Notes: a model not told the origin generated them from the letters alone. Shown: positions 637 to 49,423, counted from the stretch's first letter. The stretch: 64,000 bases of DNA from an archaeon (GCA_035291225.1 DATDSO010000010.1:82090-146089), one strand, 5' to 3'. Translations and numbers: made by a program.

Positions 637-666
637 ATAAAGTTATAATAGACTTATATAAAAAGC

Positions 667-1272: not shown

Positions 1273-1405
1273 GACTCTTCTGAGAAATTAAAAGTTTTAA
1301 GCTTGCTTTCAAACCGCCAATCCACAAAGCTTATAAACTATAACTCACTTATAATCTTACGGTAGCTTTATTAACCAGTTATGAAAATTATAATCGTGTG
1401 ATAAA

Positions 1406-1762
1406 ATGTTAATGCCCTGCGAAGCAATAATCAAAAGCTTTTTGCCCGCTATAAGAGCGGCAACAGCAAAAAAACTTTCCGACGAGCATGAACTCTCTCA
1501 GGCAACAATCGCAAAAAATCTGGGAATAACACAGGCCGCCGTAAGCAACTATCTCTCGGGAAAATATGCAAAGCACATAAAAGAAATCGAGTCAAATTCA
1601 GAAATACAAAAAACTGCAAACAGGATTGCGCAGATGGTTGCTGTTGAAAGGAAAGAAAAAAAGCATGTTGTCAACACAATTTGCCTGGCGTGCGACAATT
1701 TTGCAGACTTGAGCTGCAAGGCAAACAAAAATTCAGCTGTTGTAAAGGCTTTTTTTAGATGA
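1406..1762 (+). CDS. Small HTH (XRE-like) transcriptional regulator with C-terminal Cys pairs.
   Basis: A helix-turn-helix-like segment SQATIAKNLGITQAAVSNYLSGK is present. A C-terminal CLACDNF....C may bind metal. A BRE/TATA-like AAGCTTATAAACTATAA lies upstream. Confidence 0.55.
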   Translation: MLMPCEAIIKSFLPAIRAATAKKLSDEHELSQATIAKNLGITQAAVSNYLSGKYAKHIKEIESNSEIQKTANRIAQMVAVERKEKKHVVNTICLACDNFADLSCKANKNSAVVKAFFR

Positions 1763-1774
1763 AAAATTATTTTT

Positions 1775-2389: not shown

Positions 2390-2422
2390 AGCTTTATATA
2401 CCACTTAGGAGTAAATTATAGT

Positions 2423-2692
2423 ATGTCTAACTTCAGAATTGAGCATGACCGGCCCAACTGCATTGCCTGCGGAGCTTGCGCTGCTGTGACTCCGGATTTT
2501 TGGGAAATGAGCCCGGCGGATGGAAAGTCTGATATCAAAGGCTCGGAAAGAATTATGAACGGCGGCTCAGAAATTGTTTTGGAAAAACTTTCAATAGAGG
2601 AAAAAGATTTTCAGATAAACAAGGACGCGGCAGACGCATGCCCGGTTAATGTTATTCACATTTTCAAAGAAAGCGGGGAGAAGATAATTTAG
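2423..2692 (+). CDS. Small single-cluster ferredoxin.
   Basis: CIACGAC...CP cysteine pattern (CxxCxxC...CP). The ORF is about 89 aa. Confidence 0.6.
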   Translation: MSNFRIEHDRPNCIACGACAAVTPDFWEMSPADGKSDIKGSERIMNGGSEIVLEKLSIEEKDFQINKDAADACPVNVIHIFKESGEKII

Positions 2693-2859
2693 AAAAAAAT
2701 TTCATAGGCTCGGCAAATTCGTAAACTCATTTGCCTCGCCGACTAATGTGTGAAAAGAAAAAATCGGACGCGAAAGAATTTTTTGGCAATAGGATTTTGA
2801 CACATCAGTTGCGAGCGAGTTTTGGTTTACCAAAACGAGCGAGCCTTAGAAAAAAAATC

Positions 2860-3624
2860 ATGAGTGATGATATGCCAACCCTTGAAATAAAAAACCTCCA
2901 CGCGTCCGTGGATGGAAAAAAAATATTGAATGGAGTTTCGCTTACTGTTAAGTCTGGAGAAGTGCATGCAATCATGGGCCCGAATGGCTCGGGAAAATCC
3001 ACGCTCTCATTTTTGCTCATGGGCCACCCGAAATACAAAATAGACTCTGGGGAAATTTTGTTTGACGGAAAAAATATTTCCGAGCTGGCCGCGGACAAGC
3101 GCGCAAAGCTTGGAATGTTTTTAGGATTTCAATACCCGAGCGAAATCGCTGGGGTTTCTGTTTTCAATTTTTTGCGGACAACTTATAATTCTTTGCAGAG
3201 CAACGGCCACGCAAAGGAAATTCCTGTTTTAGAATTTGCAAGCCTGATGAATGAAAAAGCAAAAGTTGTCGGGATAGAAGCAGGAATGGTAAAGAGAAAT
3301 CTCAACGAGGGATTTTCCGGCGGAGAGAAAAAGAGAAATGAGATTTTGCAAATGGCTGTTTTGAAGCCTAAGCTTGCGATTCTTGACGAGCCCGACTCTG
3401 GAACTGACATTGATGGCCTGAGAAATATTGCGAACGGAATAAACAAAGTTGTCGCAGAAAACAAAACCGGCGTGCTTTTGATAACCCACTACAACAGGAT
3501 TTTGCAGCACGTGCGCCCGAACTTTGTGCATATTTTTGTTGATGGAAAAATTGTCAAGAGCGGCGGGCCTGAGCTCGCAGAAGAAGTTGAAAAAAGCGGG
3601 TATGATGTTTATAGGAATAATTAA
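2860..3624 (+). CDS. sufC: Fe-S cluster assembly ATPase SufC (ABC ATPase). The ORF-track start at 2731 is an upstream extension.
   Basis: Walker A GPNGSGKST, ABC signature FSGGEKKR and Walker B ILDEPDSG are present. The in-frame ATG at 2860 gives a typical ~254 aa SufC. Confidence 0.9.
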   Translation: MSDDMPTLEIKNLHASVDGKKILNGVSLTVKSGEVHAIMGPNGSGKSTLSFLLMGHPKYKIDSGEILFDGKNISELAADKRAKLGMFLGFQYPSEIAGVSVFNFLRTTYNSLQSNGHAKEIPVLEFASLMNEKAKVVGIEAGMVKRNLNEGFSGGEKKRNEILQMAVLKPKLAILDEPDSGTDIDGLRNIANGINKVVAENKTGVLLITHYNRILQHVRPNFVHIFVDGKIVKSGGPELAEEVEKSGYDVYRNN

Positions 3625-3637
3625 TTGGTGAAAATTT

Positions 3638-4183
3638 ATGCCAACACAAGAATATGCTATCGGAATAGAATCATTTCAAGAGATTTTAGAAGGAATGAAA
3701 ACTAGAGGAGGCACAAATATAGAAATTGCAGTCGGACCTGGCATAGTTAGAGTTTGCGGATATAATTCAGATGAACCTCTTTATTTTATAGATTTCGAAG
3801 GCAATCCGGATATTGCCTCTTTTGAACAAAATATAAAAAAGGCCAAAGATATCGAAGAAATTTTAAAACAACATGGTTACCCTGTTAAAATTGAATATTA
3901 TGGCTCACTGAAAGATGTGAAGAGTTCTGTTTTTAAAGATGGATATTATCGCGATTTTTATGTGAGAAGTGGAAAGTTGGAATCCGGACATGAGCTTCTT
4001 TGGATTGAATTGCATGGAGCAAAATCTTTGGCCAAACACTTGCCAGATGCTTCATCTGAAGAAGAAACGGATAAAATCAAATCTGAAGCAGAGCAAGGAG
4101 TAGACCCGCTTCATTATTTTGATTTTAAACTAGACGAAGTGGCACCTGAAGTTGATGAAACCACAATAGAAAAATGGAAGTGA
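3638..4183 (+). CDS. Hypothetical protein inserted between sufC and sufB.
   Basis: 181-aa ORF with a GGTGA SD-like motif 8 nt upstream and tight spacing. No recognisable motif. Confidence 0.5.
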   Translation: MPTQEYAIGIESFQEILEGMKTRGGTNIEIAVGPGIVRVCGYNSDEPLYFIDFEGNPDIASFEQNIKKAKDIEEILKQHGYPVKIEYYGSLKDVKSSVFKDGYYRDFYVRSGKLESGHELLWIELHGAKSLAKHLPDASSEEETDKIKSEAEQGVDPLHYFDFKLDEVAPEVDETTIEKWK

Positions 4184-4188
4184 TATTT

Positions 4189-5595
4189 ATGCCAGCCCCC
4201 AAATCCAGTTTCCTAGACATTAACCAAAAGAGCTCAGACTTCAAAATGGAAGTGGAATATTCAACAGAGCTGCCGAAAGGCTTGTCAGCAGAAGTTGTGA
4301 AAAAGATTTCAGAAATAAAAGGCGAGCCAGAGTGGATGCTTGCATTAAGATTAAAAGCTTTTGAGCATTTCACAAAAAGAGCAATGCCAACTTGGGGCCC
4401 AGACCTCTCTGCAATGAACTTTGATGAAATTACTTATTACAGAAAGCCTGCCGGAAAAAACGCAAAAGACTGGAAAGATGTTCCGGAAAATATCAAAAAA
4501 ACTTTTGAGCGCCTGGGAATTCCAGAGGCAGAAAGAAATTTTCTCGCGGGCGCGGGCGCGCAGATGGAATCCGAATCAATCTACCACAAAGTCCGCGATG
4601 ACTTGGCAAAGCTTGGAGTTATTTTCTGCGACATGGACACAGCTGTGCGCGAGTATCCAGAAATTGTGAAAAAATATTTCGGAACAGTTGTGCCTTACAA
4701 TGACAACAAATTCGCGAGCCTCAATACAGCAGTATGGTCAGGCGGAAGTTTTGTTTACATTCCAAAAGGAGTTCATGTTGAATTGCCTTTGCAGGCTTAT
4801 TTCAGAATCAATGCCGAAAGAACCGGGCAGTTTGAAAGAACAATGATAATTGTTGAAGATGGCGCGAGCGTGCACTATATTGAAGGTTGTTCCGCCCCAA
4901 GCTATTCTGAAAATTCTTTGCACGCGGCTGTTGTGGAATTAATTGCGCTGCCCGGCTCGCGCGTCCGCTACACAACTTTGCAAAACTGGGCAACAAACAT
5001 TTTTAATTTAGTTACAAAAAGAGCGCACGCCCACGAGGGAGCGTATGTGGAATGGGTTGATGCGAATGTCGGCTCTGCAATAACTATGAAATATCCGTCT
5101 GTGTTTTTAATTGGCGAAGGCTCGCGCGCGGATATTCTTTCAGTTGCATTTGCAAACTCAAACCAAATCCAGGACACGGGCGCGAAAGCAATTCACATTG
5201 GAGCAAACACTTCCTCAACAATTCTTTCAAAGTCTGTTTCAAAAGGCAGCGGCTTCACAAATTTCCGCGGGCTCGTGCAGATTTACAAAGGCGCGCGAAA
5301 TTCAAAGTCACATATGAAGTGCGACGCGCTCATGCTAGATTCGGAATCAAAATCAGACACAATTCCAACTTTGAAAATAGATGAGAAGGAAGTCCAGTGC
5401 GGGCACGAGGCGGTTGTGGGAAAAGTTTCCGAGGACCAGCTTTTCTATTTAATGAGCCGCGGTTTGACTGAGCAGCAGGCAACAACAATGATTGTCTCAG
5501 GATTTTTGCAGGCGTTCACAAAATCTCTGCCGCTTGAATATGCGATTGAATTTAACAGATTGATTGAATTGGAAATGACCGGTTCGGTCGGGTGA
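4189..5595 (+). CDS. sufB: Fe-S cluster assembly protein SufB.
   Basis: Roughly 470 aa SufB/SufD fold with typical C-terminal beta-helix blocks (...GHEAVVGKVSEDQLFYLMSRGL...). It is in an operon with sufC and sufS. Confidence 0.9.
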   Translation: MPAPKSSFLDINQKSSDFKMEVEYSTELPKGLSAEVVKKISEIKGEPEWMLALRLKAFEHFTKRAMPTWGPDLSAMNFDEITYYRKPAGKNAKDWKDVPENIKKTFERLGIPEAERNFLAGAGAQMESESIYHKVRDDLAKLGVIFCDMDTAVREYPEIVKKYFGTVVPYNDNKFASLNTAVWSGGSFVYIPKGVHVELPLQAYFRINAERTGQFERTMIIVEDGASVHYIEGCSAPSYSENSLHAAVVELIALPGSRVRYTTLQNWATNIFNLVTKRAHAHEGAYVEWVDANVGSAITMKYPSVFLIGEGSRADILSVAFANSNQIQDTGAKAIHIGANTSSTILSKSVSKGSGFTNFRGLVQIYKGARNSKSHMKCDALMLDSESKSDTIPTLKIDEKEVQCGHEAVVGKVSEDQLFYLMSRGLTEQQATTMIVSGFLQAFTKSLPLEYAIEFNRLIELEMTGSVG

Positions 5596-13245: not shown

Positions 13246-13643
13246 TGCTTTGTTCAATATGCTACAAAAAAGAAGGAGAGTGGCAATGCCAAGTCTGCAA
13301 GAGGATTGTCTGCGCAGATGATGCAAGACCGACAGGCAATGGGGTTTTTTGCGTGCAGCATGCTCCACAATCTTTCCAAAATAAACAGCAATCTCCCGCA
13401 ATAGAAGAAAGTGAGAGCTTGAAATCCATCAAGTCGGCATTCTTCACGGTTCTGTTCCTCACGTTGGGCATGGCTGTCATTGGATTTGTCGGCCAGCAGT
13501 TTGTGCAGACAACAGAATTACCTGAAAATGTGCAGGATGCCATAAAGTCTTTAACTTCTGTAGGCATAACAGTTATCTCTTTGATGGGAGTTGTAACTCT
13601 GATACTTGGGGTGGCGTACTTTGCCATGAGAAAGCGAAAATGA
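13242..13643 (+). CDS. Zinc-ribbon (B-box-like) protein with a C-terminal membrane anchor.
   Basis: CSICYKKEGEWQCQVCKRIVCADD...CVQH Cys/His cluster followed by two TM helices. There is a 4-nt overlap with the upstream gene. Confidence 0.45.
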   Translation: MMLCSICYKKEGEWQCQVCKRIVCADDARPTGNGVFCVQHAPQSFQNKQQSPAIEESESLKSIKSAFFTVLFLTLGMAVIGFVGQQFVQTTELPENVQDAIKSLTSVGITVISLMGVVTLILGVAYFAMRKRK

Positions 13644-13676
13644 AAAGCTTATAAGTCTGAGTGTATAATATTTTTT

Positions 13677-15077
13677 GTGATTTCAATGAGAGGTTTCGCT
13701 CTGGCTATTTTGCTTTTGGCCTTCTTCACCGCGCCTGCGCTTGGAGCTGAAGAAAATCTGGAAAATATAACAATTTCCGCAACAAATCCTTCAGAAGTTC
13801 TGGCGGGCGATTCAACTTTTTTTGAAGTGACTGTCACTAATAACTTTTTGGAAACGGATTGGTTTAGCATTTCAGTTTATCCTTCAGATTGGACAACAAT
13901 AGAAAATGGAATCTCTTCATTTATGCTTGGGAATGGCGGGAGCAAAACTTTAAAAATTTTCGTCAGTCCTCCAGTTGACGTTCGAGCGGCAAAATATGTT
14001 TACACAATAAATATTCAGAAAAGCTCCGGAGAGAAAGCCTTGAAAGATGTTGTTGTCGGAGTCCAGCAAAGATATGTTTCTGCTCTAATTTCTGATTTGA
14101 GATTAAGCTGCACCGAATGTGCGGGGCAATTAACAACAACAGCAAGAGTCAAGAATGTCGGCAACACACCAATAGCAAACGGGATTTTAGCCTTCTCTGT
14201 TGGTAATTTCAAAAAAGCTGTGGTAATAGATAATCTTAATCAGGGAGAGGAAAAAGAGTTTTCTGCCACATTTTTGCCGGTAACATGGGAGCCACATGAG
14301 TATGAAGTTTTTGTGCAGCTAGCAGCAGGAGCGAGCAGCGATTCTAAAACCGCGAGATTTTCAGTCCCGCCGATTACAAATTTCATCACAGACAAAAGCG
14401 AGCGAGATACTTTTTGGGGAAAGCGTGTGACAGCTACAGTTAGAAATGTTGGGAATGTAAAAGGGCCAGCGACAATTTCATCTGGCTCTGATTTCAGTCC
14501 GTTTATCGCTCTCTATCCAGATACAGCCGGCGCATCAATAACAGGAAATGCTGTAAGCTGGTATGCTGAACTCAAGCCAGGTGAATCAAAGACAGTTTCT
14601 TACAGCCAAGTTTTCTGGCCGACACCATTTATTGTTTTGTTTTTGATTTTTGCCGCGCTTTATGGCCATTCAATCGCAACAGCACTTGAAATAAATAAAT
14701 TCGCTCTGGGAACAGGAAAAGAGTTTGGAGTTTCCATAAAAATCAAAAACAAGGGAACTCGTGCAGATGGGGTTGTCGTGCGCGATGTGCTGCCTCATGG
14801 ATTTGATTTGGTTCCGATTTTTGAAACAGTCAAGCCCATAATCAGAAAAATTTCTGATGGGACTGAGTTGATTTGGAGGCTCGGCTCGGTCGGGAAGGGA
14901 GAAGAAAGGGTTTTGCATTACAGGGCAAAAAGCGGAGGCCATGGTGGAGCCATTCCACCTGCGGTTTTGCGTGGCGCTAGAGGCAGAAGCATTGTCTTGA
15001 GAAAATCAAACTATGTTGTTCTTCCAAAAGCCGCCAATGCAGAGCCAACAAAAGTCAAAGTAAGAGTCGTAGAGTGA
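13677..15077 (+). CDS. Secreted surface protein with CARDB/DUF11-like beta-sandwich repeats and a TM anchor.
   Basis: N-terminal signal peptide. Repeated ...TV(T)NVGN... blocks (KNVGNTPIANG, RNVGNVKGPA, IKNKGTRADG). An internal hydrophobic helix PTPFIVLFLIFAALYG. Confidence 0.6.
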   Translation: MISMRGFALAILLLAFFTAPALGAEENLENITISATNPSEVLAGDSTFFEVTVTNNFLETDWFSISVYPSDWTTIENGISSFMLGNGGSKTLKIFVSPPVDVRAAKYVYTINIQKSSGEKALKDVVVGVQQRYVSALISDLRLSCTECAGQLTTTARVKNVGNTPIANGILAFSVGNFKKAVVIDNLNQGEEKEFSATFLPVTWEPHEYEVFVQLAAGASSDSKTARFSVPPITNFITDKSERDTFWGKRVTATVRNVGNVKGPATISSGSDFSPFIALYPDTAGASITGNAVSWYAELKPGESKTVSYSQVFWPTPFIVLFLIFAALYGHSIATALEINKFALGTGKEFGVSIKIKNKGTRADGVVVRDVLPHGFDLVPIFETVKPIIRKISDGTELIWRLGSVGKGEERVLHYRAKSGGHGGAIPPAVLRGARGRSIVLRKSNYVVLPKAANAEPTKVKVRVVE

Positions 15078-31337: not shown

Positions 31338-33434
31338 TCAGGCGTTCGTTTCTTGTTCCTCTTCTTCAGAATCTTGTTCTTCGTACACCTCGCTTACGCT
31401 GCCGAGTATTGTTCCGAATACATCTGTTGGATCTTTAATTGTTTTTATCTGCCCACCGCTTTCCTCAATCAGTTGAGTGAGTGCATTTTTTGCAGGATAT
31501 TTAACTATATGCAAAAGCGCAAGTTTGTTTCCGCGAGAAGTTGCTGTGCGTATAAACTCATTTGTTTCCTCGCTGATTTGGGAATTAAGTTCATCGATTT
31601 CGGCATCGGTTATCAAAACAGTAAAAACTGGATCTTTGTTTTTCTTGAGGATTTGTGTCATTGTTCCAGAAGGCAGAATTGTTCCTCCATTGGCTTCCTC
31701 TTTTGCCAAAAACACATTTTCGGCGCGCATGTAATTGGTTGTCCATTCTGTGTGCAGTTCTTCTGGGTATGGATCTGCATACGTTGCGCTGAAGTCAAGA
31801 GCGGCAACTCTTGCTCCGTGCTTTCCAGCTAAATCAAGAGCAGCAAAGGCTCCGACATTAGCTGACTCGTATTTTTTATCAAAAGCCATACTTCCAGAAG
31901 AGTCTCTGATGATAAGCAGATCAGGCCTTGCTACATAAACTTTGTGGCCTTTTCTAACCATCCTTGTTCTTTCTTTTAGCGTTGTTCTTCCCGGAATCAT
32001 TTCTGGAGAAATTGAAAGGGATTTCTGCACATCCAACTCTTCAACAGAGTCCCCGATATTCCACTTGCCAAAATATGTTCTTCTCGGTCTCCCTCTTCCT
32101 TTCTGAGTGGGCTTAACTTCCATCAAGTTTGCCGCTTTAACCCTGTACCAATATCTTTTTAATTCTCCCTCTTGAATGCCGGCTGCGCTCATAACTACTT
32201 TAAAATTTTCATAATTATTTTCATTTCTGCTGAAAGCTTCGGAAGCGTAAGCAGCCTGCTCTTCCTCGCTCATTTGCGGCGTGGTGCCTACCATGGCTCT
32301 TATATCAATCGGCAAACCTGCTTTGTTGGGGTATTCTTTTTTATCAGAGCATTTGCAGCCCGCGCCCTCTCCTTCTTTTTTCTCCTCTTGTTTTGATTTT
32401 CTTTGCGGCCTTCCTTGACCTCTGCCTTCAACAGGAATTGAAGGCGGCGCATATCTCCTTCCTTCCTGATCTTTAGATTTTTCATCTCCTTTTAACTTCT
32501 TTAAAATTCTTTTAATTATTTCACCTCTTCCGAAACCCGGCTCTTTCTCTTCTTGCTCTTTTCCTGGGCTTCCTCCCTGACCGCCGCTACCATCAACAGG
32601 CAGCCCCATATTTCCTTTCATACTTTGGTCTTGTTTCATTTGCTGGTTTTGTAATCTTTGCTGCTCTCTTAAAGCATCTTTTCTCATCACAGGCCCAATA
32701 ACTTTAGAGAACTCGCCGATCTTATCGTACCAGAGGCCCGAATCCCTATAATCTTTTCCAAGAACTTCTGCAACTCTTTCCGCTGCTTCTACTTCATGCC
32801 TGCTTAATCCTAAAGCTTCAACACCAAGATCAGTGTTCCACATTGATTCGTATGCTTTGTGAAATATTTTTACTGACTGGGATGCTTCCCCTTCCAATTT
32901 TTTATCCACGAGATTTTTAACATATTTCATGAATTCCCTTCGCCACCATTCCACAGTCTGGGAATTTGTTTTCTTTCCATAGCCATCTCTTCTCCAAGTG
33001 TCAATTACTATATCTCCGAATAGATTTACAATATTGTTTGCGTAATCAGGGACATGATCTCGTGGTATATTTTCTCCTGCCAATGATTTTGAAACAGCAT
33101 CAACCATTGCTGCCCTAGTTCTAATATCAAATGGAAAAATCTTGTAGTGAGTAATTTCATGCTCTGCACACTGCTGAAAATAATCTTCCTTCTCCCTTTC
33201 TGTCAAGCTGTCAGGTATTGCTGCTGCATTTAAATGCGGCCTCGCGCCTTCGTGCCATTCCAAACAAAAGGGGGACGGATCAGCAGGATCATAAATTATT
33301 TCAGGATCCGGAAGCTCGTTGCATGCTCTCATATTCCAACAGGCTCTATTGTAAACGCCTCCCCATCTTTGAAGATCAGCAGGGCTTTGAGGCTTTGCCT
33401 CTCTATCGCTTGCATCGGAGTTGTGTTCTGTCAT
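31338..33434 (-). CDS. Large vWA (MIDAS) domain protein, the MoxR partner. It has an N-terminal domain with HExxH, a low-complexity linker and an acidic tail.
   Basis: The C-terminal vWA carries the MIDAS motif DSSGSM and a downstream TDAEID. The N-terminus carries AEHEITHY. A Gln/Gly/Lys/Glu-rich linker is present. The C-terminal tail reads EEQDSEEEEQETNA. Confidence 0.75.
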   Translation of the reverse strand: MTEHNSDASDREAKPQSPADLQRWGGVYNRACWNMRACNELPDPEIIYDPADPSPFCLEWHEGARPHLNAAAIPDSLTEREKEDYFQQCAEHEITHYKIFPFDIRTRAAMVDAVSKSLAGENIPRDHVPDYANNIVNLFGDIVIDTWRRDGYGKKTNSQTVEWWRREFMKYVKNLVDKKLEGEASQSVKIFHKAYESMWNTDLGVEALGLSRHEVEAAERVAEVLGKDYRDSGLWYDKIGEFSKVIGPVMRKDALREQQRLQNQQMKQDQSMKGNMGLPVDGSGGQGGSPGKEQEEKEPGFGRGEIIKRILKKLKGDEKSKDQEGRRYAPPSIPVEGRGQGRPQRKSKQEEKKEGEGAGCKCSDKKEYPNKAGLPIDIRAMVGTTPQMSEEEQAAYASEAFSRNENNYENFKVVMSAAGIQEGELKRYWYRVKAANLMEVKPTQKGRGRPRRTYFGKWNIGDSVEELDVQKSLSISPEMIPGRTTLKERTRMVRKGHKVYVARPDLLIIRDSSGSMAFDKKYESANVGAFAALDLAGKHGARVAALDFSATYADPYPEELHTEWTTNYMRAENVFLAKEEANGGTILPSGTMTQILKKNKDPVFTVLITDAEIDELNSQISEETNEFIRTATSRGNKLALLHIVKYPAKNALTQLIEESGGQIKTIKDPTDVFGTILGSVSEVYEEQDSEEEEQETNA

Positions 33435-33448
33435 TATCTCACCATAAA

Positions 33449-34228
33449 TTAAGGTTTGGTTCCTTTGTAGGTAGCAAAAACTTCATGAAATTTTTTCAAA
33501 ATTGACACAACGGTTTTAATCCCATATTTTTGTGCTGTTTTTCCAATAGAATCAAGCGGCGGAAGCTGCCTTAGCAAATGATTACCCCATTGATTATATT
33601 CCAATTCAGTGGGCGCTTCTATTTTTTTGTCTTCCAACGCATCCACTAAAACAGCCGTCATAATGGGGCGCATATCTTTGGGCATAAGCAGCGCAATCAT
33701 GTAAGGGTGGGCCACTTTTGCTCGCTTTTGTTTGACATCGGTATCTTCATTATAATTCTGCCCCGGCACATTTACATCAGTAACTTTACTCCCTTCTAAA
33801 AAATATTCCGGGAACAAAATTTTTAGATTTTCCAAATCAACAACTTCTCCAACATCTGCCACATCTGTTTCCAGCAAATATGGATTTATTCTTTTTAACA
33901 ATGAATGCCAAACAGGTCTTTTTAGCTCTACTTTCGAATTAAATCTGTTAACTCGCCTTTCTCCCGTATCAAAGTTCGGAACTAATGTTATGCAGTGCGG
34001 TCCAGCATATCTGATAAACAAATTGTCATGTCCATAAATTTTGCATAAATATTCTCCAAGAACTTTTTCCATTTGCTCAATCAATTGCGGCGGAGTTCCA
34101 TCGCCAGAAGGCGGGGCTTTCTCCGCATCCTTTAGGCTCCCGTCTCTTGGAGACACTGGCTGAGAGCCATGCCTTCTCTCAAGTGCTTCCTTTATTGATG
34201 GGCTGGATGGTTCTGCCATAAAAATCAA
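33449..34228 (-). CDS. Hypothetical protein, paralog B of a tandem pair in the MoxR-vWA operon.
   Basis: Shares the N-terminal PSSPSIKEALERRHGSQPVSPRDGS and colinear blocks (NPYLLETDVADV.., AHPYMIAL) with the upstream gene. Confidence 0.6.
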   Translation of the reverse strand: MIFMAEPSSPSIKEALERRHGSQPVSPRDGSLKDAEKAPPSGDGTPPQLIEQMEKVLGEYLCKIYGHDNLFIRYAGPHCITLVPNFDTGERRVNRFNSKVELKRPVWHSLLKRINPYLLETDVADVGEVVDLENLKILFPEYFLEGSKVTDVNVPGQNYNEDTDVKQKRAKVAHPYMIALLMPKDMRPIMTAVLVDALEDKKIEAPTELEYNQWGNHLLRQLPPLDSIGKTAQKYGIKTVVSILKKFHEVFATYKGTKP

Positions 34229-35037
34229 TTTCTGCCTCTGTAAAGATTTGCAACATCAACAACTGCTTTTATTATGGGCTTCAAATCTTTCACTCCGTAT
34301 TCTTCTGCTACTTTAGCAAAACATTCTAAAGGCGGAACAGAGCCCCAAAGACAGCTTGCAACTCTCCCCATTTTAACCTCCGTTGGAACAATAACCATTT
34401 TATTTTTTATTGCGAGGGTTATCACAGCTGTTACATATGGCCTGACATCAGGCACTACAGATAACGCAAGCATATATGGATTTGCCAGTTTAGCTCGTCT
34501 GATATTTTCAGCTTCATTATTATAATCATTATCAACGAATGTCTCTCTAAAAGTTTCCAAAGCAGGAATTTCAGGTAACATATCCTTCAAAGCTTCCAAG
34601 CTAACAGCTTCTTCAACCTGAGCCAGATCTGTTTCCAGAAGATATGGAGATTTTTTTCTCAAAATAGAACGCCACATCTGCCTGCTCACACTGTCAGCTA
34701 ATCTTGGCTTAAAGCTACTTAAATTAGAATTTTGAAATACTGGCTCAACGAAAAGCAAGTAAGGCCCCATCCCTTTTAATGAAAAATGGTCATTTTCATA
34801 AATTTTATGAAGGCAGTCTCCCAACACCACTTCCATTTCTTCGAGAAGTTCTATCGGTATTTCACCTGTATGCGCAGAAAATTTTTTTCCGGCCTTTTCG
34901 CTTTCACTGCTATCTGAACCGCTCCCGTCTCTTGGGGATACTGGCTGAGAGCCATGCCTGCGTTCAAGAGCCTCTTTAATTGATGGGCTTGATGGAGGAC
35001 TTGGAGGTCCGCTTTCCATTTTATCACCTCTGTCCAC
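34225..35037 (-). CDS. Hypothetical protein, paralog A of the tandem pair. The true start may be the internal MESGPPS.
   Basis: The same N-terminal 23-aa motif and colinear blocks (SPYLLETDLAQV.., ANPYMLAL). It overlaps the stop of the MoxR gene. Confidence 0.6.
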   Translation of the reverse strand: MDRGDKMESGPPSPPSSPSIKEALERRHGSQPVSPRDGSGSDSSESEKAGKKFSAHTGEIPIELLEEMEVVLGDCLHKIYENDHFSLKGMGPYLLFVEPVFQNSNLSSFKPRLADSVSRQMWRSILRKKSPYLLETDLAQVEEAVSLEALKDMLPEIPALETFRETFVDNDYNNEAENIRRAKLANPYMLALSVVPDVRPYVTAVITLAIKNKMVIVPTEVKMGRVASCLWGSVPPLECFAKVAEEYGVKDLKPIIKAVVDVANLYRGRN

Positions 35038-36502
35038 TGCCGGGGTTTCTAAGTCTCTCGCGTATTAACGCCCTAAGTTGGTTTTGCGCACCCAGAGGCA
35101 AAGAACGGTATTCAGGTCTTCTCAAGTCTAACATCATTGTTGCAAGCTCTTGCGGATTTTTCATGCCGCCGATGCGGCCAACATTGTCTCTGTAAAGAGC
35201 ACTGTCCATTCCTTCAACAAAAGGAACCATATCTAATTTCACAATCAAGTCATCAAACTGTTGAAGCTTTTGGACATCTGAAGAATTTCCTTTGCCTTCC
35301 AGCAGAGTAAGGTAAATTTTTTCTGCTTCCAGTCTCTGATCCAACTTTCTCATGGAAATTTTCCAAGCGTCTCCAACCATTTCCATGAGGTTTCCATTAT
35401 AAGGGTCTTTCATCAAAATTTGATCATTGGGTTTTATTCTATGATATAAAGCATACGGGGCCATAGCTCCAGCAACCTCTACTGAAACCGAAGGCTGATC
35501 CAAAAGCCATGCAACTCTTTTTGCAACTTTGCTCCATCTTTCATGAGTTCTTGTGGAAATGTGGGCATCGGTCATCTGGCATGGATTTTTTATTCCAACC
35601 GCAGAAACTTTTATGTCAGTAGCATAGTGGCATTTGTTGCACAAACCTTCGGATGGTTTTCCCCTTCCTTTAGCTTTATCACCGTCGGCTTTTATGCAAA
35701 GCGATAATTCTTTTTCAAAGTAAGTCATCTGCAACATGGCATCCGAGTCAATCGGAATTTTATCTGCTTCTTTTGTTGCTTCTGTCAAATCTTCAAATGT
35801 CGTAATTTGCTCTAATCCTCTGCCATGAAGAGAAACATCTTTTCTGCCTGCAATCTCAGCCAAGTCTGCCATAGAAGCTGGCTCAACAGGGCAAGATAAA
35901 ACGAAACGGTCGTACATAGCTGGGTCAACTTCAAATGTTCCTTCTCCAAAAGGATTTATGGTTCCAAAAACTCTTTGATCGGGAACAACGAAAGCCGCGT
36001 CTGCATATTTCCAAACGCCCTCTTCTATACCTGCGAAAAACATATTCATAACTTCCGGAGAGGCTCTGTTGAACTCATCTGCCACCTTCCACCTTCCAAG
36101 CGTCCATTTTCTGGGCACAGGAACTTCTTGAGGATTATTTCTGTCCAATAATTTTGCCATGTCTGGGCGAGCGACTATTTTTTCTTCTGTTTGCTCTGGG
36201 TGAAGCCTAAGAACATTAGTTTCAATTTCTGATTCAGGTATGCCTGCAAGCATTACACCCAATGCTTTTGCTAGAGAAGTTTTTCCGTCTCCATGTCCAC
36301 CCACATATAGAATTGTGCCACCCGGTGTTATTGCTGTTGCGATTCCTAAAAATGCCGCCGCCTCATAAGATTCTCTCTGTTTTACACCACCCCGATCCAC
36401 GACAACACGAAAAGGATCGGAGCTATTCAGATAAATAAGCCTGTCTCCCAATGTGTAATAGGCGCTCATTAATTTATCTCTAAGCTTCTCTGGATTAGCC
36501 AT
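35024..36502 (-). CDS. MoxR-family AAA+ ATPase with an extended Cys-containing C-terminal region.
   Basis: Walker A GGHGDGKT. The MoxR-specific Walker B region VADEFNRASPEV. Sensor-1 region FGTINPFGEGTFEVDPAMYDRF. A promoter-like AAGCTTTATATA lies ~35 nt upstream on the minus strand. Confidence 0.8.
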   Translation of the reverse strand: MANPEKLRDKLMSAYYTLGDRLIYLNSSDPFRVVVDRGGVKQRESYEAAAFLGIATAITPGGTILYVGGHGDGKTSLAKALGVMLAGIPESEIETNVLRLHPEQTEEKIVARPDMAKLLDRNNPQEVPVPRKWTLGRWKVADEFNRASPEVMNMFFAGIEEGVWKYADAAFVVPDQRVFGTINPFGEGTFEVDPAMYDRFVLSCPVEPASMADLAEIAGRKDVSLHGRGLEQITTFEDLTEATKEADKIPIDSDAMLQMTYFEKELSLCIKADGDKAKGRGKPSEGLCNKCHYATDIKVSAVGIKNPCQMTDAHISTRTHERWSKVAKRVAWLLDQPSVSVEVAGAMAPYALYHRIKPNDQILMKDPYNGNLMEMVGDAWKISMRKLDQRLEAEKIYLTLLEGKGNSSDVQKLQQFDDLIVKLDMVPFVEGMDSALYRDNVGRIGGMKNPQELATMMLDLRRPEYRSLPLGAQNQLRALIRERLRNPGSGQR

Positions 36503-36564
36503 AAAACCACATACTCCTTAATAGAATATACCACCTATTAGTATATAAAGCTTGTGGTAAGCTG

Positions 36565-37158
36565 TTAATAAAAAAGCAAATCCGCTGTTGCAGCAGAAAC
36601 AACTGCAGGCATTGTTATCACAGCCACTTGCTTGAAAGCATCTATCCCAGCGCCTGTTCCAAGTATTGAGACAAAAATAAATGAAGTCAGAAAAGAAATT
36701 ATGTAAACCTCAACTGCGCGCAAAGCTGAGGCTCTGAAAATTTGTGTTGAGACAAACTTTCTCCTGCGCGAAAAATAAATCAGGAGAAATCCCAAAAAGA
36801 ACCCGAGAAAAATCACAGACAACATATTCAATAAATTGAGCCTAGCTGAAATATCCCAAACTTCCTGTGTTACAGTAAAGAACATCGCACCGAAAGCTGC
36901 GCCCACAAAATCCTGCGCAACAAGAATTGTCGGCTTTCCGTGGAGGAATCCAAATTCCTTTTCCTTCCTTTCTTTATACTTCAAATCTTCCAGAGCTTCA
37001 ATATCTTCTGTGATTTCCTGTGCGACTTTTTCCAGGCGCTCCTCAGCAATTTCAAGCTTGTCAGCCTCGCTCATTTTCCTTAGTTTTTTCTTTATTGTTC
37101 TGCTTTTTTCAGCAGCCGCTATCCGGCCGCGCATTTTCAAGGGAAAACCTTTTGCCAT
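36565..37158 (-). CDS. Membrane protein with an N-terminal coiled-coil and four C-terminal TM helices.
   Basis: A charged coiled-coil region (EADKLEIAEERLEKVAQEITEDIEALEDLKYKERKE) followed by hydrophobic helices. It lies 62 nt upstream of the MoxR gene on the same strand. Confidence 0.5.
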   Translation of the reverse strand: MAKGFPLKMRGRIAAAEKSRTIKKKLRKMSEADKLEIAEERLEKVAQEITEDIEALEDLKYKERKEKEFGFLHGKPTILVAQDFVGAAFGAMFFTVTQEVWDISARLNLLNMLSVIFLGFFLGFLLIYFSRRRKFVSTQIFRASALRAVEVYIISFLTSFIFVSILGTGAGIDAFKQVAVITMPAVVSAATADLLFY

Positions 37159-45469: not shown

Positions 45470-48400
45470 ATGGGTTGTAATAAATTATTATTAGCTCTTG
45501 CTGTATTTTCTATTTTAATAATTTCTGTAGCAGCAACTCCAGCGCTTGCCGCAGATCCTGTAACAGATTTTTTTAATTGGCTTTTTGGAGTAACCGGAGC
45601 GCAGACAGGAAATGAAACTCCGGCATCTTCAAGCAGCACAACATCAAGTTCAACCACAACAACTACATCAATACCCAGCTGCGAGGGACCAATACCTTCT
45701 TCAGGATGTACATGTCCCAGTCCGGGCGGACCCGTTTATTATAGCGGCTTTTGTTGTAGCAATACTTATCAGGCCTCTACAGCTTGCGGAACAACTTCAA
45801 CTTATACTACAGCAACTTCCTCCTCTTCATGCCCATCTTCTGTCCTTTCTGTTTTAGGAGAAGGATGCCACTTCATGTACACCGGAAGTGATGGAAGATC
45901 TATTTATTGCAACAGCGGAATGACGCGCTCAATGAAAGAGAGCGACACAGCAGCGAAAGACGGATGCACGTCTGACACAACCACAACAACTTATTCCGGA
46001 ACAACAACCTCCTCTCTTCCTTCCACAAGCACCCCATGCACAATTGGCTCTGCGATAACTTCTCTCTGCAACTGCGGCGGGTATTCTTATAATTCTGGAT
46101 ATTGCTGTTCTTCAACATCGGGTTCAGGAAGCGGATATTTCCAGAGCAATGCCTGCGGGACAACCACAACTTATTACACTTCAACAACTTACTCTTCAAC
46201 ATGCCCTTCCACTGTTCTTTCTGTTTTAGGAACAGGATGCCATCAGATGTATACAGGAAACGATGGTAAAACAATTTACTGCGATAGTGGAATGACGCGC
46301 TCAATGAAAGAAGGAGACACCGCCTCAAAAAGTGGATGCACATCTGAATCAAATGTTTGTAGTTCCTCAAATCCGTGGTATTGCTATGATCAAACTTCTT
46401 GCACAGGAGTCTCTGCAAACTGGTGCAAGAGCAGCAGCACAAGTGGCGGATATTGCTCAACCTCAACATGCCCAACTTGTTCAAAGGACAGCGCATGGAA
46501 TTGTTATGACCAGAGCGGCTGCACAGGAGCTGGCGGAAATTGGTGCCAATCAGGAGGTTCAAGTTATGGATATTGTCAAAATTCTGCATGCCCAACCTGC
46601 AGTTCTTCGAGTCCATGGAATTGTTATGATGAAACTTCTTGCAAAGGAGCAACAGGAAATTGGTGCAAGAGTTCTGCCTCCTCGGGAGGAACTGCTACAT
46701 ACAGCTCTGGCTGGTGTTCTTCAAGTTCATGCCCAACCTGCGCCTCAACTTCAAAATATAATTGTTATACAGAAACAGACTGTAAAGGAGCAACAGGAAT
46801 CTGGTGCGGTTCTCAATCAGGTTCAGGAGGATATTGCGGTGAAGCGGTTTGCCCAACTTATACTTGTTCAAAGAGCGAGCCATGGAACTGTAAAGACCAA
46901 ACAACTTGTTCTGGCGCAGGAGCGAGCTGGTGCTCCGGCTCCGGAGGATATGGATATTGTTCAAGCTCATGCCCAACCTGCGACAAAACTAATCCGTGGA
47001 ATTGTTATACAAAAGAAGCGTGTACTGGCGTGAGTGCGCAATGGTGTTCGGGCTCGGGTGGTTATGGATATTGTTCCAGTTCAACATGTCCAACATGTAG
47101 CTCAACAACAAAATATAATTGTTACGATGAAACTTCCTGTAAAGGCGCAACGGGAAGCTGGTGCATTTCCCAATATGGAGGAAGCGGTTGGTGTCAAGAT
47201 TATTCATGTCCAACTTATACTTGTTCAAAATCAGAACCTTGGAATTGTAGAGATGAAACAACCTGTAAAGGTGCAGGAGCAAGCTGGTGCGGCAGTTGGT
47301 GTCAAACTAGCTCTTGCCCGACTTGTTCAAAATCTCAGATATGGAACTGCAACACAAAAGAAACTTGTACAGGAACAGGAGCAAACTGGTGCACAAGTCA
47401 AAATATAGCTTATGCTACGGCAGCGGGTGGAGCAGCAGCATCATCGCCACCGTCGTCTGGTTGGTGTCAAGAATCTTCCTGCCCAACTTACGCTTGTTCG
47501 AAAACAGAACCTTGGTATTGTTATGACCAGAATTCTTGCTCAGGAGCAGGAGCGAGTTGGTGCACTGGTTATGGCGGAGCAGGAGGTTATTGCCAAAGCG
47601 GATCCTGCCCAACTTATACATGCTCTTCTTCAAATCCATGGAATTGTTTCAAAGAAGAAGAATGCAAAGGAGCAGGAGCGCGGTGGTGTGTGACAACATC
47701 ATATGGAACTACCTTAAATGGGTGGTGCTCAAATTCCTGCCCAACTTGCAGCTCAACACAAAAGTATAATTGTTTTGATAAAACTTCCTGCGCGGGCAGC
47801 GATGGATACTGGTGCGGTACAGAATCAACAGGATGGTGCGCTGACCAAAAATGCGCCACTTGCAGTACAACCCAGCCATGGAACTGTTATGATAAAGAAA
47901 CATGCACAGGGGCAAGCGGAAGTTGGTGCACAAATCAATACAGCACTTATGGATCAACCGCAGTTGTTTCATCCGGCTGGTGCCAATCTAATGATTGCCC
48001 AACATGTTCAAAATCCCAGCCATGGAATTGTTTTATTGAAACAGACTGCAAAACAAACGGAGGCAACTGGTGCGGCACGTGGTGTCAAGACAGCTCATAC
48101 CAATGCCCATCAACAAAGGGCTACAATGTAGAGGAGAAAAAAGAAAATTTCATAAAACCTGAAAATTGCAAAGAGCAAAAAGATTCTAATACAGGTTACA
48201 CTAATTATGTTTGTGAAAAGAAGACTGAAGAAAAATGTCCAGAGCTTTCGGTAGATGTAAAAGAGAAATGCGAATCAAATAGTGGAAAGCTTACGATAAA
48301 GAAAGATAGGCGTGGCTGCGAATTTACAGACTGCAGATTCAAAGAAGAGTTTAATCCAGACAAGAAATTTATTTTAAAGAAATTTGACCGCTGCCCAACA

Positions 48401-49423
48401 GATGCTGAATTAAATGAATATCAAAGTTCCTGCGAAAAATCTGGCGGCACACTGAAAACAAGCTTGGAAGGCGGTTGTAAAATAGGATTTTGTTTGAACG
48501 CTGATGAGAATGAATGTGAAAGAGAAATAAATCCAAAGTTTGAGAAAGAGATCGAAGAGAAATGCAAGAAAGAGGGACTTGTGGTTGTGAAAGACTTTGA
48601 TCCGCGCGGCTGCACGGTTTTGCACTGCGGCGAACAAGACTTCTGCAAGAAAGTCCCGAAGAATGCTTATAGTGAGTGCGAGAACCAAGGCGGTGAGCTT
48701 GTTGTTAAAACAGATGAAAGAGGGTGCGCGACTTTCTCTGAATGTGTAAGGCCTGGAGATGAAAAAGTTTATTTGGAGGAGCATGAGAAAATAACTGAAA
48801 TTCCGGATGAAACAGAATTGCTTTCCCTTGCTTTGAAGCTCGAGGAATTAAAAGTTTCGTTTGATAAGATGTCAACTCAGGCAAAGGATCTGGCTAATTA
48901 TTATAAATCAACAGGAAGTTCAGAAGCTAAGAAGTTAACAAGAGTCGCAGATATGTTTGCTGCTGCTACTGGAAAAATAGATGAAATAAAAACAGCATTG
49001 AGAAACAAACTAACAACAATAACGCCGGCTGATTTAGAGGAGATAAAGCTTGAGATAAGGACAATCAGGAAAGTGACTTTGAAGGACATTTTGTATGTTA
49101 TGCTTAGCACAAAAGATGATGTGAAAGATATCGTTGATGAAAAGGAAAAAGATTGCGGCATAGATGGGCTCTGCTTTGACAAGAGCTTCAGAATATGCCA
49201 AAAAGCAATAATGAGATCTGACCAAGAGGGAACGTTTGTAAGAATAACTGGAGAAAGCGATGGAAAGTGCTTGATGGAAGCTGAAGCAAAAGTCGCTGGA
49301 ATCGCAGTTTCAATGAAATGCGAAGTGCCGAACTATGCTCTTGGATTTAAGAACCCAGAAACAGATGTACTTCCATACTGCACGGGCGGTTTAGTTGATG
49401 CTATAAAAACGGGAAAGGTTTAG
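45470..49423 (+). CDS. Giant secreted Cys-rich tandem-repeat protein (putative surface/adhesin protein).
   Basis: N-terminal signal peptide. S/T-rich tracts. More than 20 tandem ~40-aa modules of the form CPTC-x(3-5)-WNCY-x(3)-C-x-GA-x-G-x-WC. Four C-terminal C..C..GC..C modules in a Lys/Glu-rich region. Confidence 0.75.
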   Translation: MGCNKLLLALAVFSILIISVAATPALAADPVTDFFNWLFGVTGAQTGNETPASSSSTTSSSTTTTTSIPSCEGPIPSSGCTCPSPGGPVYYSGFCCSNTYQASTACGTTSTYTTATSSSSCPSSVLSVLGEGCHFMYTGSDGRSIYCNSGMTRSMKESDTAAKDGCTSDTTTTTYSGTTTSSLPSTSTPCTIGSAITSLCNCGGYSYNSGYCCSSTSGSGSGYFQSNACGTTTTYYTSTTYSSTCPSTVLSVLGTGCHQMYTGNDGKTIYCDSGMTRSMKEGDTASKSGCTSESNVCSSSNPWYCYDQTSCTGVSANWCKSSSTSGGYCSTSTCPTCSKDSAWNCYDQSGCTGAGGNWCQSGGSSYGYCQNSACPTCSSSSPWNCYDETSCKGATGNWCKSSASSGGTATYSSGWCSSSSCPTCASTSKYNCYTETDCKGATGIWCGSQSGSGGYCGEAVCPTYTCSKSEPWNCKDQTTCSGAGASWCSGSGGYGYCSSSCPTCDKTNPWNCYTKEACTGVSAQWCSGSGGYGYCSSSTCPTCSSTTKYNCYDETSCKGATGSWCISQYGGSGWCQDYSCPTYTCSKSEPWNCRDETTCKGAGASWCGSWCQTSSCPTCSKSQIWNCNTKETCTGTGANWCTSQNIAYATAAGGAAASSPPSSGWCQESSCPTYACSKTEPWYCYDQNSCSGAGASWCTGYGGAGGYCQSGSCPTYTCSSSNPWNCFKEEECKGAGARWCVTTSYGTTLNGWCSNSCPTCSSTQKYNCFDKTSCAGSDGYWCGTESTGWCADQKCATCSTTQPWNCYDKETCTGASGSWCTNQYSTYGSTAVVSSGWCQSNDCPTCSKSQPWNCFIETDCKTNGGNWCGTWCQDSSYQCPSTKGYNVEEKKENFIKPENCKEQKDSNTGYTNYVCEKKTEEKCPELSVDVKEKCESNSGKLTIKKDRRGCEFTDCRFKEEFNPDKKFILKKFDRCPTDAELNEYQSSCEKSGGTLKTSLEGGCKIGFCLNADENECEREINPKFEKEIEEKCKKEGLVVVKDFDPRGCTVLHCGEQDFCKKVPKNAYSECENQGGELVVKTDERGCATFSECVRPGDEKVYLEEHEKITEIPDETELLSLALKLEELKVSFDKMSTQAKDLANYYKSTGSSEAKKLTRVADMFAAATGKIDEIKTALRNKLTTITPADLEEIKLEIRTIRKVTLKDILYVMLSTKDDVKDIVDEKEKDCGIDGLCFDKSFRICQKAIMRSDQEGTFVRITGESDGKCLMEAEAKVAGIAVSMKCEVPNYALGFKNPETDVLPYCTGGLVDAIKTGKV
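46340..48110 (+). repeat. Coding tandem repeat array (about 22 six-cysteine modules, ~115-130 bp each) inside the giant gene.
   Basis: Recurring nucleotide words (tcatgcccaacctg, ccatggaattgttat, ggtgcaagag) at ~120-bp spacing. Opposite-strand ORFs over this region are repeat-induced artefacts. Confidence 0.7.

Follow-up and report, generated by a model that had tools for sequence, protein, structure and literature searches.

At 31338-36502 the window, a 64,000-nucleotide stretch of archaeal DNA, carries a real four-gene archaeal operon that encodes an ATPase, two paralogues and a partner protein. Our preferred reading, to which we give a probability of about 55%, is that the products are a MoxR-class ATPase, its vWA partner and two dedicated client or adaptor proteins that would be recruited through a short N-terminal peptide, the tag. 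On this reading, the mechanism of which we infer, the tag is a new element and the ATPase-partner pair a new variant of the MoxR-vWA chaperone. It has proved notoriously difficult to identify what MoxR-vWA chaperones act on, and no client is known for most members of the family. In the present case the operon itself encodes the likely clients, and these bear a short conserved peptide in which a Glu is invariant. If this peptide does serve as an address label, the client set of a MoxR system could for the first time be read from the genome.

Organisation and composition of the operon

The four open reading frames run in the same direction on the minus strand and, as the initial annotation had described, are tightly packed, with spacings (gaps or overlaps) of 4-14 nt (Table 1). 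Four motifs were also confirmed in place (GGHGDGKT at 36278-36301, VADEFNRA at 36062-36085, and DSSGS and HEITH as in Table 1), while calling the vWA protein a giant was an overstatement for its length. For paralogue A an alternative GTG start at 35037 would give a protein of 270 residues (34225-35037); the ATG is the more likely start. The genes around the operon are housekeeping genes, encoding RNA polymerase, LysRS, UPP synthase and SAH hydrolase.

Table 1. Features of the operon and of the gene upstream, in window coordinates
Feature	Position	Strand	Remarks
Membrane protein, 197 aa, DUF2391-like	36565-37158	-	Pfam DUF2391 24.5 bits
BRE/TATA-like promoter element of the operon, AAGCTTTATATA	36542-36553	-	Exact match, ~40 nt before the ATPase ATG
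MoxR-class AAA+ ATPase, 492 aa	35024-36502	-	
Cys/His cluster within the ATPase (C269, C288, C291, H292, C308)	35579-35698	-	Kept in 91-98% of 87 family ATPases
Paralogue A, 264 aa from ATG, tagged accessory protein	34225-35019	-	Agrees with public gene call
N-terminal tag of paralogue A, SSPSIKEALERRHGSQPVSPRDGS	34921-34992	-	24 residues, same as paralogue B
Paralogue B, 256 aa from ATG, tagged accessory protein	33449-34219	-	
N-terminal tag of paralogue B, SSPSIKEALERRHGSQPVSPRDGS	34136-34207	-	24 residues, same as paralogue A
Partner, 698 aa: HExxH N-domain, disordered linker, helical middle region, MIDAS-vWA	31338-33434	-	
Partner N-domain, aa 18-276 (HEITH at 33147-33161)	32607-33383	-	Invariant HExxH residues, AF2 model
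Partner linker, aa 277-370, low-complexity, G/K/E/Q-rich	32325-32606	-	pLDDT <50 over 283-361
Partner vWA domain, aa ~500-690 (MIDAS DSSGS at 31890-31904, T585, D610)	31365-31937	-	

The block had been thought noticeably more GC-rich than its flanks, and horizontal acquisition had been suggested on that account. Neither claim is supported. The GC content of the block is 0.419 and that of the window 0.4135, which puts the block at the 79th percentile among windows of its size, adjacent housekeeping genes lie at 0.42-0.44, and GC3 of the four operon genes (0.30-0.35) is slightly below that of the flanking genes (0.35-0.44). The tetranucleotide distance of the block is only at the 92nd percentile, so that it is no outlier in this respect. 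A GC-rich island or a recent horizontal transfer was rejected on these three measures; both composition and promoter are native. The operon does have a promoter of its own, as had been claimed, but there is nothing special about it: AAGCTTTATATA has six matches with at most one mismatch in the window where 0.5 would be expected, and it is thus the usual BRE/TATA element of the genome.

The membrane protein does, as noted before, end 62 nt upstream of the ATPase, but it is probably outside the system. We rejected it as a component because its gene is closed by its own terminator-like hairpin and T-run (36597-36581, minus strand) upstream of the operon, and because at the orthologous locus L001/L008 an RHH_1 gene precedes the ATPase and there is no membrane-protein gene.

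The MoxR-class ATPase

The first gene product had been taken for a MoxR AAA+ ATPase and this identity holds: it scores above the Pfam cut-off for AAA_5 (31.8 bits, cut-off 22) and its MoxR motifs are complete. It is below the cut-offs for AAA_3 (18.5 bits, cut-off 27) and AAA_lid_2 (15.8 bits, cut-off 22.7, E = 0.011); an AAA_lid_2 match is recorded for the orthologue at L010, and the Asgard orthologue at L055 exceeds the cut-offs of both AAA_5 (52.5 bits) and AAA_3 (30.7 bits). The motifs GGHGDGKT, DEFNR, TxNP, DRF, SxR and HR, which we take to be Walker A (GxxGxGKT), Walker B (hhhhDExNR), sensor-1 (TxNP), the arginine finger (DRF) and sensor-2 (SxR...HR), are each kept by 90% or more of the 87 family ATPases compared. 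The key residues (G68-T75, D142, E143, N145, R146, T181, N183, D198, R199, F200, S316, R318, H354 and R355) are present in 90-100% of the same relatives. With the orthologue at L001 the identity is 70%. The Cys/His cluster may bind zinc.

The partner protein

The last gene had been described as encoding a MIDAS-bearing vWA protein that also has an HExxH motif, with which family conservation and the predicted structure both agree. The protein matched no model in Pfam (0 families at E <= 1) or NCBIfam. A confident AF2 model, made from a 53-sequence alignment (pLDDT 82, pTM 0.78), confirmed in prediction that the C-domain has the vWA (Rossmann-like alpha/beta) fold. Of the MIDAS residues D511, S513, S515 and D610 are invariant in the family, and only one of 53 members lacks T585. 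The link to the Pfam vWA families comes through relatives only, 31 of 53 matching VWA_2 and 17 of 53 matching VWA; the window protein itself matches neither. No further domain follows the vWA domain. The linker is poorly conserved and in P0004 its length differs.

Across 66 members the N-domain keeps H92, E93, H96, Y97, P101, D103 and D141 without exception and N137 almost always. In the AF2 model a helix and three short strands precede the HExxH helix, after which more helices follow; pLDDT is mostly >90, and H92, E93 and H96 lie within the predicted helix 79-98. Candidates for a third zinc ligand are D103, N137, D141 and D145. The domain had no sequence match in Pfam or PDB, family level included, and none to a peptidase family, and its profile found only designed helical repeats among the PDB sequences. 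The domain may be zincin-like, an assignment made from motif conservation and the predicted order of secondary structure. The window partner has a Phe at the position of the nearly invariant C100, which counts against the preferred reading. If the domain is active, a protease would be built into this MoxR partner.

DUF2201_N and DUF2201 describe a putative metallopeptidase and a vWA-like domain beside MoxR ATPases. By description the partner is alike, joining an HExxH N-domain to a vWA-like C-domain next to a MoxR ATPase, but it matches neither model at E <= 1. Among the relatives, one of 53 matches DUF2201 (PF09967, E = 0.005) and none of 66 N-domains matches DUF2201_N (PF13203). Membership was rejected on the absence of PF13203 and PF09967 matches in the window protein.

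When the partner model was searched with Foldseek, 605-813 columns were aligned to phage CobT-like or VWFA proteins of 535-809 aa (E = 2e-9 to 2e-6), and these alignments are full-length, yet the TM-scores are only 0.20-0.28. CobS is an AAA_5 ATPase that pairs with CobT, and pairing with an AAA_5 ATPase is common to both systems, but the partner has no Pfam or NCBIfam CobT match, there is no CobN, and HExxH is not a feature of CobT that we know of. Membership of the CobT, NorD, CbbO or ViaA families was rejected since there is no Pfam or NCBIfam match and housekeeping genes surround the operon; the partner resembles these families in structure only.

It could be argued from these alignments, and from weak matches of the ATPase to Mg- and Co-chelatase ATPase models, that the pair is a chaperone for cofactor insertion of the NorQD, CobST or CoxDE type, serving one metalloenzyme encoded elsewhere, with the paralogues as assembly factors. 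We think this very unlikely, given that no candidate metalloenzyme is conserved beside the pair in any of ~120 loci, that CobT, CobN and NorD family matches are absent, and that the accessory proteins are wholly different between loci, unlike one conserved client.

The paralogues and their N-terminal tag

The two central genes are tandem paralogues, as had been proposed (40% identity, E = 4e-52), and have no match at family thresholds in Pfam, NCBIfam, PADLOC or PHROGs. Paralogue A had no PDB match either and a search of PDB with the paralogue profile was empty; the sole match of paralogue B, to Pfam PF23450, is sub-threshold (E = 0.052, 14.3 bits, cut-off 27.8).

The tag is identical in the two proteins, which are 21-50% identical outside it, and the strict tag motif occurs in the window at these two sites only. 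At the DNA level 62 of 72 nt are the same and all 10 differences are synonymous, with no non-synonymous change. Judged from the coding sequences, purifying selection acts on the protein sequence of the shared 24-residue peptide. Gene conversion as the source of the identity was rejected, because the copies differ at these 10 synonymous sites.

In related operons 2 to 7 accessory proteins have unrelated bodies that are preceded by a like N-terminal peptide and then a low-complexity linker. The tag takes the forms IxxALE, ΦDDxLxE and YFxKFxxLE at these loci, the first being the core common to the window paralogues and to the accessory proteins of L001 and L015. GIAGALExxHGKP is present on six proteins at L001/L008, MPIDDALEE on seven consecutive genes at L015, LDDK(L/V)xxLP on five proteins at L009, GLDDVLAE at L034, and YFxKFxxLE on six proteins at L061 and three at L097. 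Once the tag is removed, hhalign detects no homology of the bodies across loci or across the subgroups of one locus (probabilities <1%). At most Asgard loci the ATPase-partner pair is bare and tagged neighbours are absent; tagged arrays thus belong to one part of the family, which counts against the preferred reading. A selected peptide that recurs on unrelated accessory proteins lends real support to the earlier view of the paralogues as dedicated clients or adaptors; the client role itself we infer.

The tag and the HExxH domain could also be combined differently, as a processing system in which an active zincin peptidase recognises or cleaves the tag, the ATPase and vWA domain merely present the substrate and the accessory precursors are matured or activated by the cut. 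The invariant residues of the N-domain and its predicted order of helix, three-strand sheet and HExxH helix, which would fit a minimal zincin, are in keeping with this, but its third zinc ligand is at the candidate stage and it has no match to a Pfam peptidase family or PDB sequence. At L014 the two flanking proteins contain three and two repeats of the sequence KRTLPEEQELE, an arrangement reminiscent of a polyprotein, whereas in most loci the tag starts at residue 2-15 and cleavage there would remove few residues. Some MoxR-vWA systems have been linked to peptide-processing zincins (PMC7159879). We regard a processing system as rather doubtful, and it is compatible with the client or adaptor reading rather than exclusive of it.

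Proposed mechanism and comparison with known systems

Under the preferred reading, the N-terminal peptide would be a targeting tag that recruits the accessory proteins to the machine, probably, by analogy with other MIDAS domains, through its conserved Glu on the MIDAS metal. The sixth ligand of a MIDAS metal is an acidic residue of the bound protein (PMC6624252, PMC13036017), and the conserved Leu-Glu of the tag would supply it, like the Glu of Rsa4 and Ytm1 for Rea1 or the acidic ligands of integrins. The ATPase ring would next move the vWA domain, so that the tagged protein is remodelled, assembled or released, and cleavage of the tag or linker by the zincin-like N-domain may end the cycle or activate the client. 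Alternatively, the reader of the tag could be the HExxH domain, the ATPase or some unrelated machinery. It also counts against the preferred reading that we know of no N-terminally tagged substrates of MoxR ATPases.

A bolder form of the proposal, which is possible and which we put forward tentatively, is that the IxxALE-core peptide is an encoded address label whose Glu docks on the MIDAS, that the Asgard-centred family, often adjacent to SMC/ScpB, is a prokaryotic counterpart of the Midasin type, and that the fused zincin provides the release step. If the Glu docks in this way, the operon would spell out the clients of its machine.

In Rea1/Midasin the MIDAS binds the UBL ligands of Rsa4 and Ytm1, and one conserved Glu completes the metal coordination (PMC6624252). 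Both systems combine a MIDAS domain with an AAA+ motor and a flexible linker that is acidic or of low complexity; that a Glu holds the ligand is conjectural here. However, in Rea1 six AAA modules are united in one giant polypeptide, and its ligands are folded UBL domains, not short N-terminal peptides; the comparison is one of mechanism and layout rather than of sequence.

NorQ-NorD, a MoxR AAA+ ATPase with a vWA partner, inserts iron into nitric oxide reductase (PMC13036017, PMC9976466). As there, the gene for an AAA_5-type MoxR ATPase adjoins that for a partner made of an N-domain, a long, functionally important linker and a C-terminal vWA domain with a DxSxS-T-D MIDAS. In contrast, the window operon has no NOR genes nearby, its ATPase is about twice as long and has a C-terminal extension as well as the conserved Cys/His cluster, the N-domain of its partner has the invariant HExxH, and the proposed clients are operon-encoded and N-terminally tagged.

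The VMAP/iSTAND ternary conflict systems combine a MoxR-vWA core with a rapidly diverging third component, and it has been proposed that their vWA domain captures a substrate peptide and that the ATPase then releases the substrate remodelled (PMC7159879). The window operon is similar in having additional fast-diverging, largely helical components. It differs in that no VMAP or iSTAND domain was matched and no effector domains are fused to the vWA protein, in that the family is archaeal, mostly Asgard and DPANN-type, where those systems are from multicellular bacteria, and in the shared N-terminal tag, which is absent from that description. VMAP membership was rejected, as the paralogues have no Pfam VMAP match at E <= 1 and no further domain follows the vWA domain of the partner.

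Distribution of the family

Word-indexed homologue searches with paralogue A, the partner and the ATPase profile returned only the query itself and one sister lineage. Scans of genomes and viruses for related loci were empty, that of metagenomes gave an unrelated ClpB (L007), and tblastn against phages and plasmids found no match. The wider family is seen only through exhaustive HMMER searches and a hand-made degenerate DNA pattern. An exhaustive search with the partner profile gave 209 cluster representatives at E <= 1e-3, and most of those among the matches listed cover both N- and C-terminal parts. The ATPase is the immediate upstream neighbour of the partner in 89 of 118 related loci. The same pair is present in 110 GTDB genome pieces, most of them from Asgard archaea. 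The statement in the initial annotation that no MoxR system has this architecture was therefore too strong, ternary MoxR-vWA systems also having been described (PMC7159879). The ATPase-partner family itself appears to be undescribed, in that neither the curated models nor the literature searched gave a description of it. It is common in Asgard archaea and has no curated model for the N-domain or the whole partner.

Ternary MoxR-vWA conflict systems (PMC7159879) raise the alternative of a defence role, with the accessory proteins as fast-diversifying sensors or effectors restrained by the pair. Their copy number of 1 to 7 and bodies diverged beyond recognition would suit this, as would HEPN/NTase, RHH and PIN genes around L001, a DNA methylase and a second, separate bpMoxR-DUF2201 system beside the pair at L012, and one family member on an IMG/VR contig. 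It nevertheless seems unlikely. PADLOC, run on five window proteins, gave only a weak match of the ATPase to IetA (E = 0.019, 12.4 bits), the window proteins have no Pfam VMAP match, phage and plasmid collections gave none, and the operon sits amid housekeeping genes with native composition and promoter. In the Asgard members synteny is with SMC and ScpB genes, not with defence genes, and since the family is so often found beside them its function may bear on Asgard cell biology. The pair is also present in the cultured Promethearchaeum syntrophicum and Lokiarchaeum ossiferum.

Organisation and genomic setting of the operon

The initial annotation had described four tightly packed co-directional genes with two paralogous proteins in the middle. 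Between 31338 and 36502 the minus strand carries four ORFs, every motif that it quoted is in place, and the two middle proteins are 40% identical (E = 4e-52). The ATG starts match the public gene calls for the same contig. The motif AAGCTTTATATA, allowing at most 1 mismatch, occurs 6 times in the window (657, 2389, 10758, 36542, 39241 and 55713) against 0.5 expected, and is therefore the ordinary BRE/TATA element of the organism; the sites provide a usable promoter consensus for the genome. Given this motif, the terminator-like hairpin and T-run that close the membrane-protein gene and the TATA-like CTTTTTAAATA upstream of the downstream UPP synthase gene, the genes for the ATPase, the two paralogs and the vWA partner probably form one transcription unit.

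To the same annotation the block looked more GC-rich than the flanks, which suggested horizontal acquisition; the composition does not bear this out. Its GC content is 0.419, compared with 0.4135 for the window and 0.42-0.44 for flanking housekeeping genes, placing it at the 79th percentile of equal-sized windows; its tetranucleotide distance is at the 92nd percentile, not the maximum and not an outlier. GC3 is 0.30-0.35 in the four genes and 0.35-0.44 in the flanking genes. The block is flanked by core chromosomal genes (RNA polymerase B, A' and A'', class I LysRS, UPP synthase, SAH hydrolase), and there is no sign of recent acquisition. The organism was found again in groundwater metagenomes, on contigs of up to 874 kb.

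Coordinates of the features in the window and in related loci (L numbers)
Feature	Position	Strand	Remarks
ATPase	35024-36502	-	492 aa
Cys/His cluster of ATPase	35579-35698	-	C269, C288, C291, H292, C308
Paralog A	34225-35019 from ATG	-	264 aa; 270 aa from GTG start at 35037
Paralog B	33449-34219	-	256 aa
Partner	31338-33434	-	698 aa
Promoter motif AAGCTTTATATA	36542-36553	-	
Membrane protein	36565-37158		197 aa; ends 62 nt upstream of ATPase
ORF, no Pfam match at E <= 1e-4	45470-49423	+	1317 aa
RHH_1 protein and surrounding genes	L001:5819-5959, 13430-13807 and 322-2722		RHH_1 protein of 46 aa
Leucine-rich-repeat loci	L010:3420-3920; L128:3994-4503, 4680-5381		AT-rich
Second MoxR system	L012:14717-18088		
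Proteins flanking partner gene	L014:1-1140, 3398-4312		
Protein adjoining pair, Thorarchaeota chromosome	L068:2965-4077	-	370 aa

The ATPase and its partner

The ATPase passes the Pfam cut-off for AAA_5 (31.8 against 22) and scores under those for AAA_3 and AAA_lid_2; an Asgard ortholog is over the cut-off for both AAA_5 and AAA_3. The Walker A, DExNR, TxNP, DRF, SxR and HR motifs are all present and are 90-100% conserved among 87 aligned ATPases of the family. The protein is a MoxR-class AAA+ ATPase, as the initial annotation had it, and its catalytic residues are intact. A Cys/His cluster located between ATPase core and lid is 91-98% conserved in the same 87 proteins; the alignment marks it as a signature of the family, and it is possibly a zinc site. 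The cluster is not known from other MoxR proteins.

For the partner there was no match in Pfam, NCBIfam or PDB sequences, and against PHROGs only a weak, non-significant one (E = 0.057). In an exhaustive profile search 209 cluster representatives reached E <= 1e-3, and the majority match in the N-terminal and C-terminal parts alike. Its description as a vWA/MIDAS protein with an HExxH motif holds. Among 53 aligned family members Asp511, Ser513, Ser515, Met516 and Asp610 are invariant, Thr585 is found in 52, His92, Glu93, His96, Asn137 and Asp141 are at least 90% conserved, and 31 match Pfam VWA_2. In the AF2 model based on this alignment (pLDDT 82, pTM 0.78) the predicted N-domain (residues 18-276) consists of a helix, three short strands, the HExxH-bearing helix and more helices; a disordered, low-complexity linker (residues ~283-361), a helical middle region and then the vWA domain follow. 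Searching PDB sequences with a 66-member profile of the N-domain gave no genuine match, and those members have no recurring Pfam family. The predicted topology, together with the invariant residues (HExxHY..P.D, followed on a later helix by N...D...D), would fit a putative zincin.

Their layout makes the two proteins a NorQD/CobST-type MoxR-vWA pair. Unlike the curated systems, however, the partner has an invariant HExxH N-domain, the ATPase has the Cys/His cluster and, in the branch to which the window belongs, the operon encodes accessory proteins with a common N-terminal tag. The system does not qualify as a member of VMAP, DUF2201, CobT or NorD, and a literature search found no description of the family.

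Distribution of the family

A search of GTDB species genomes and IMG/VR with a degenerate DNA pattern encoding HE[x]xHYxxCP[YF]D found 110 GTDB genome pieces and one IMG/VR contig, all encoding true family members (HMM E about 1e-32 to 1e-198). It is a large family with mostly Asgard members. By the names carried by the sequence records the 110 pieces comprise Thorarchaeota (45), Promethearchaeota/Loki (17, including the cultured Promethearchaeum syntrophicum MK-D1 and Lokiarchaeum ossiferum), other Asgard (4), archaea without a finer label (20), Bathyarchaeota/Thermoproteota (2), DPANN-labelled (3), Methanosarcinales-labelled (3) and bacteria, mostly Bacteroidales (16). The ATPase gene is the immediate upstream same-strand neighbour of the partner gene in 89 of 118 non-redundant loci. 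The window partner has a single close relative, in L001 (58% identical across the whole alignment and 61% within the best local segment; L008 is a sister MAG), and forms a divergent branch with it. A defence-type system is an alternative reading of the operon, but it does not qualify as a PADLOC defence system, with a weak match to the ATPase only, the context is chromosomal, and there are no phage or plasmid matches.

A common N-terminal tag on the accessory proteins

Paralogs A and B have no above-threshold match in Pfam, NCBIfam, PADLOC or PHROGs and none in the PDB; the only relatives found were each other. They have an identical 24-residue stretch at the N-terminus, SSPSIKEALERRHGSQPVSPRDGS, while outside this tag they are 21-50% identical. 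The coding stretches of the tag agree at 62 of 72 nt and all ten differences are synonymous, which, given the divergence of the rest, is the pattern of purifying selection on the peptide. Recent gene conversion as the source of the identity is ruled out by the same ten differences and the diverged remainder. The strict motif has no further occurrence in the window.

Tag peptides of accessory proteins in the window and in related loci
Locus	Tagged proteins	Peptide
Window	paralogs A and B	SSPSIKEALERRHGSQP
L001 (plus one in L008)	5 (+1)	GIAGALExxHGKP / NIAQALEKxHGK
L015	7, consecutive genes after partner gene	MPIDDALEE
L009	5	LDDK(L/V)xxLP
L034	1	GLDDVLAE
L061 / L097	6 / 3	YFxKFxxLE
L010, L128 (leucine-rich-repeat proteins)	1 each	IELEKLIGK / TEIEKFLGK
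Bacteroidales, upstream proteins	1 each	YEKALELK / YETALTEK

All the tabulated proteins have the order tag, low-complexity stretch, body. Without the tags, the bodies have no detectable similarity between loci or within-locus subgroups (hhalign probabilities <1%). With a strict threshold of 6 or more identical residues out of 8, an N-terminal stretch is common to same-operon pairs in 4 of 118 loci; pairs from different loci reached it in 1.5% of 3000 trials. As far as these comparisons detect, the tag is the sole common feature of the accessory proteins and accompanies the ATPase-partner pair, so that it looks like a putative targeting signal.

In the AT-rich loci L010 and L128 a small leucine-rich-repeat protein with a tag-like N-terminus follows the pair, and in L128 a Ras-like small GTPase also follows. 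The L068 protein, which resembles the classical AAA neighbours of L070 and L041, has LAEALEL at residues 20-26; it is the sole Asgard neighbour with a loose tag pattern, which may be chance.

A proposed role for the tag

In MIDAS domains the sixth metal ligand, an Asp or Glu, is supplied by the bound protein; Rea1 grips Rsa4 and Ytm1 by way of a single conserved Glu, and NorQD remodels its target by having the AAA+ ring turn the vWA domain and stretch the linker of the partner (PMC6624252, PMC13036017). By analogy, we propose a putative mechanism in which the conserved Leu-Glu of the tag would dock on the MIDAS of the partner, the ATPase would then move the vWA domain, and the tagged protein would be remodelled, assembled or released; the HExxH domain may cleave the tag or the linker. 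In L014 the two proteins on either side of the partner gene carry internal copies of KRTLPEEQELE, three in one and two in the other, at spacings of about 100-130 residues, which gives them the look of polyproteins or multivalent ligands. These repeated internal tags speak for a processing element in at least some loci. The alternative of a cofactor-insertion chaperone is countered by the lack of a conserved enzyme beside the pair. The system points to clients of MoxR proteins and permits a simple tag-binding test.

Neighbourhoods of related loci

The surroundings of the operon differ between the window genome and L001, where the RHH_1 gene before the operon, and nucleotidyltransferase/HEPN pairs and a PIN_9 gene around it, provide toxin-antitoxin-like neighbours that are absent from the window. 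In Asgard loci (L058, L116, L108, L071, L070, L041, L074 and others) the pair often adjoins genes for SMC, ScpB and a small classical AAA protein. Within 8-kb pieces, a true SMC (SMC_N and hinge) is present in 40 of the 118 loci and the classical AAA protein in 42; ScpB is near the pair in P. syntrophicum MK-D1 and SMC in L. ossiferum. Either a functional link or inherited synteny could explain this proximity. The L012 contig carries, ~5 kb downstream of the pair, a second MoxR system of a different kind, made up of a P-loop protein, bpMoxR, a protein of 254 aa and a DUF2201/VWA_2 protein; a DNA methylase separates the two systems.
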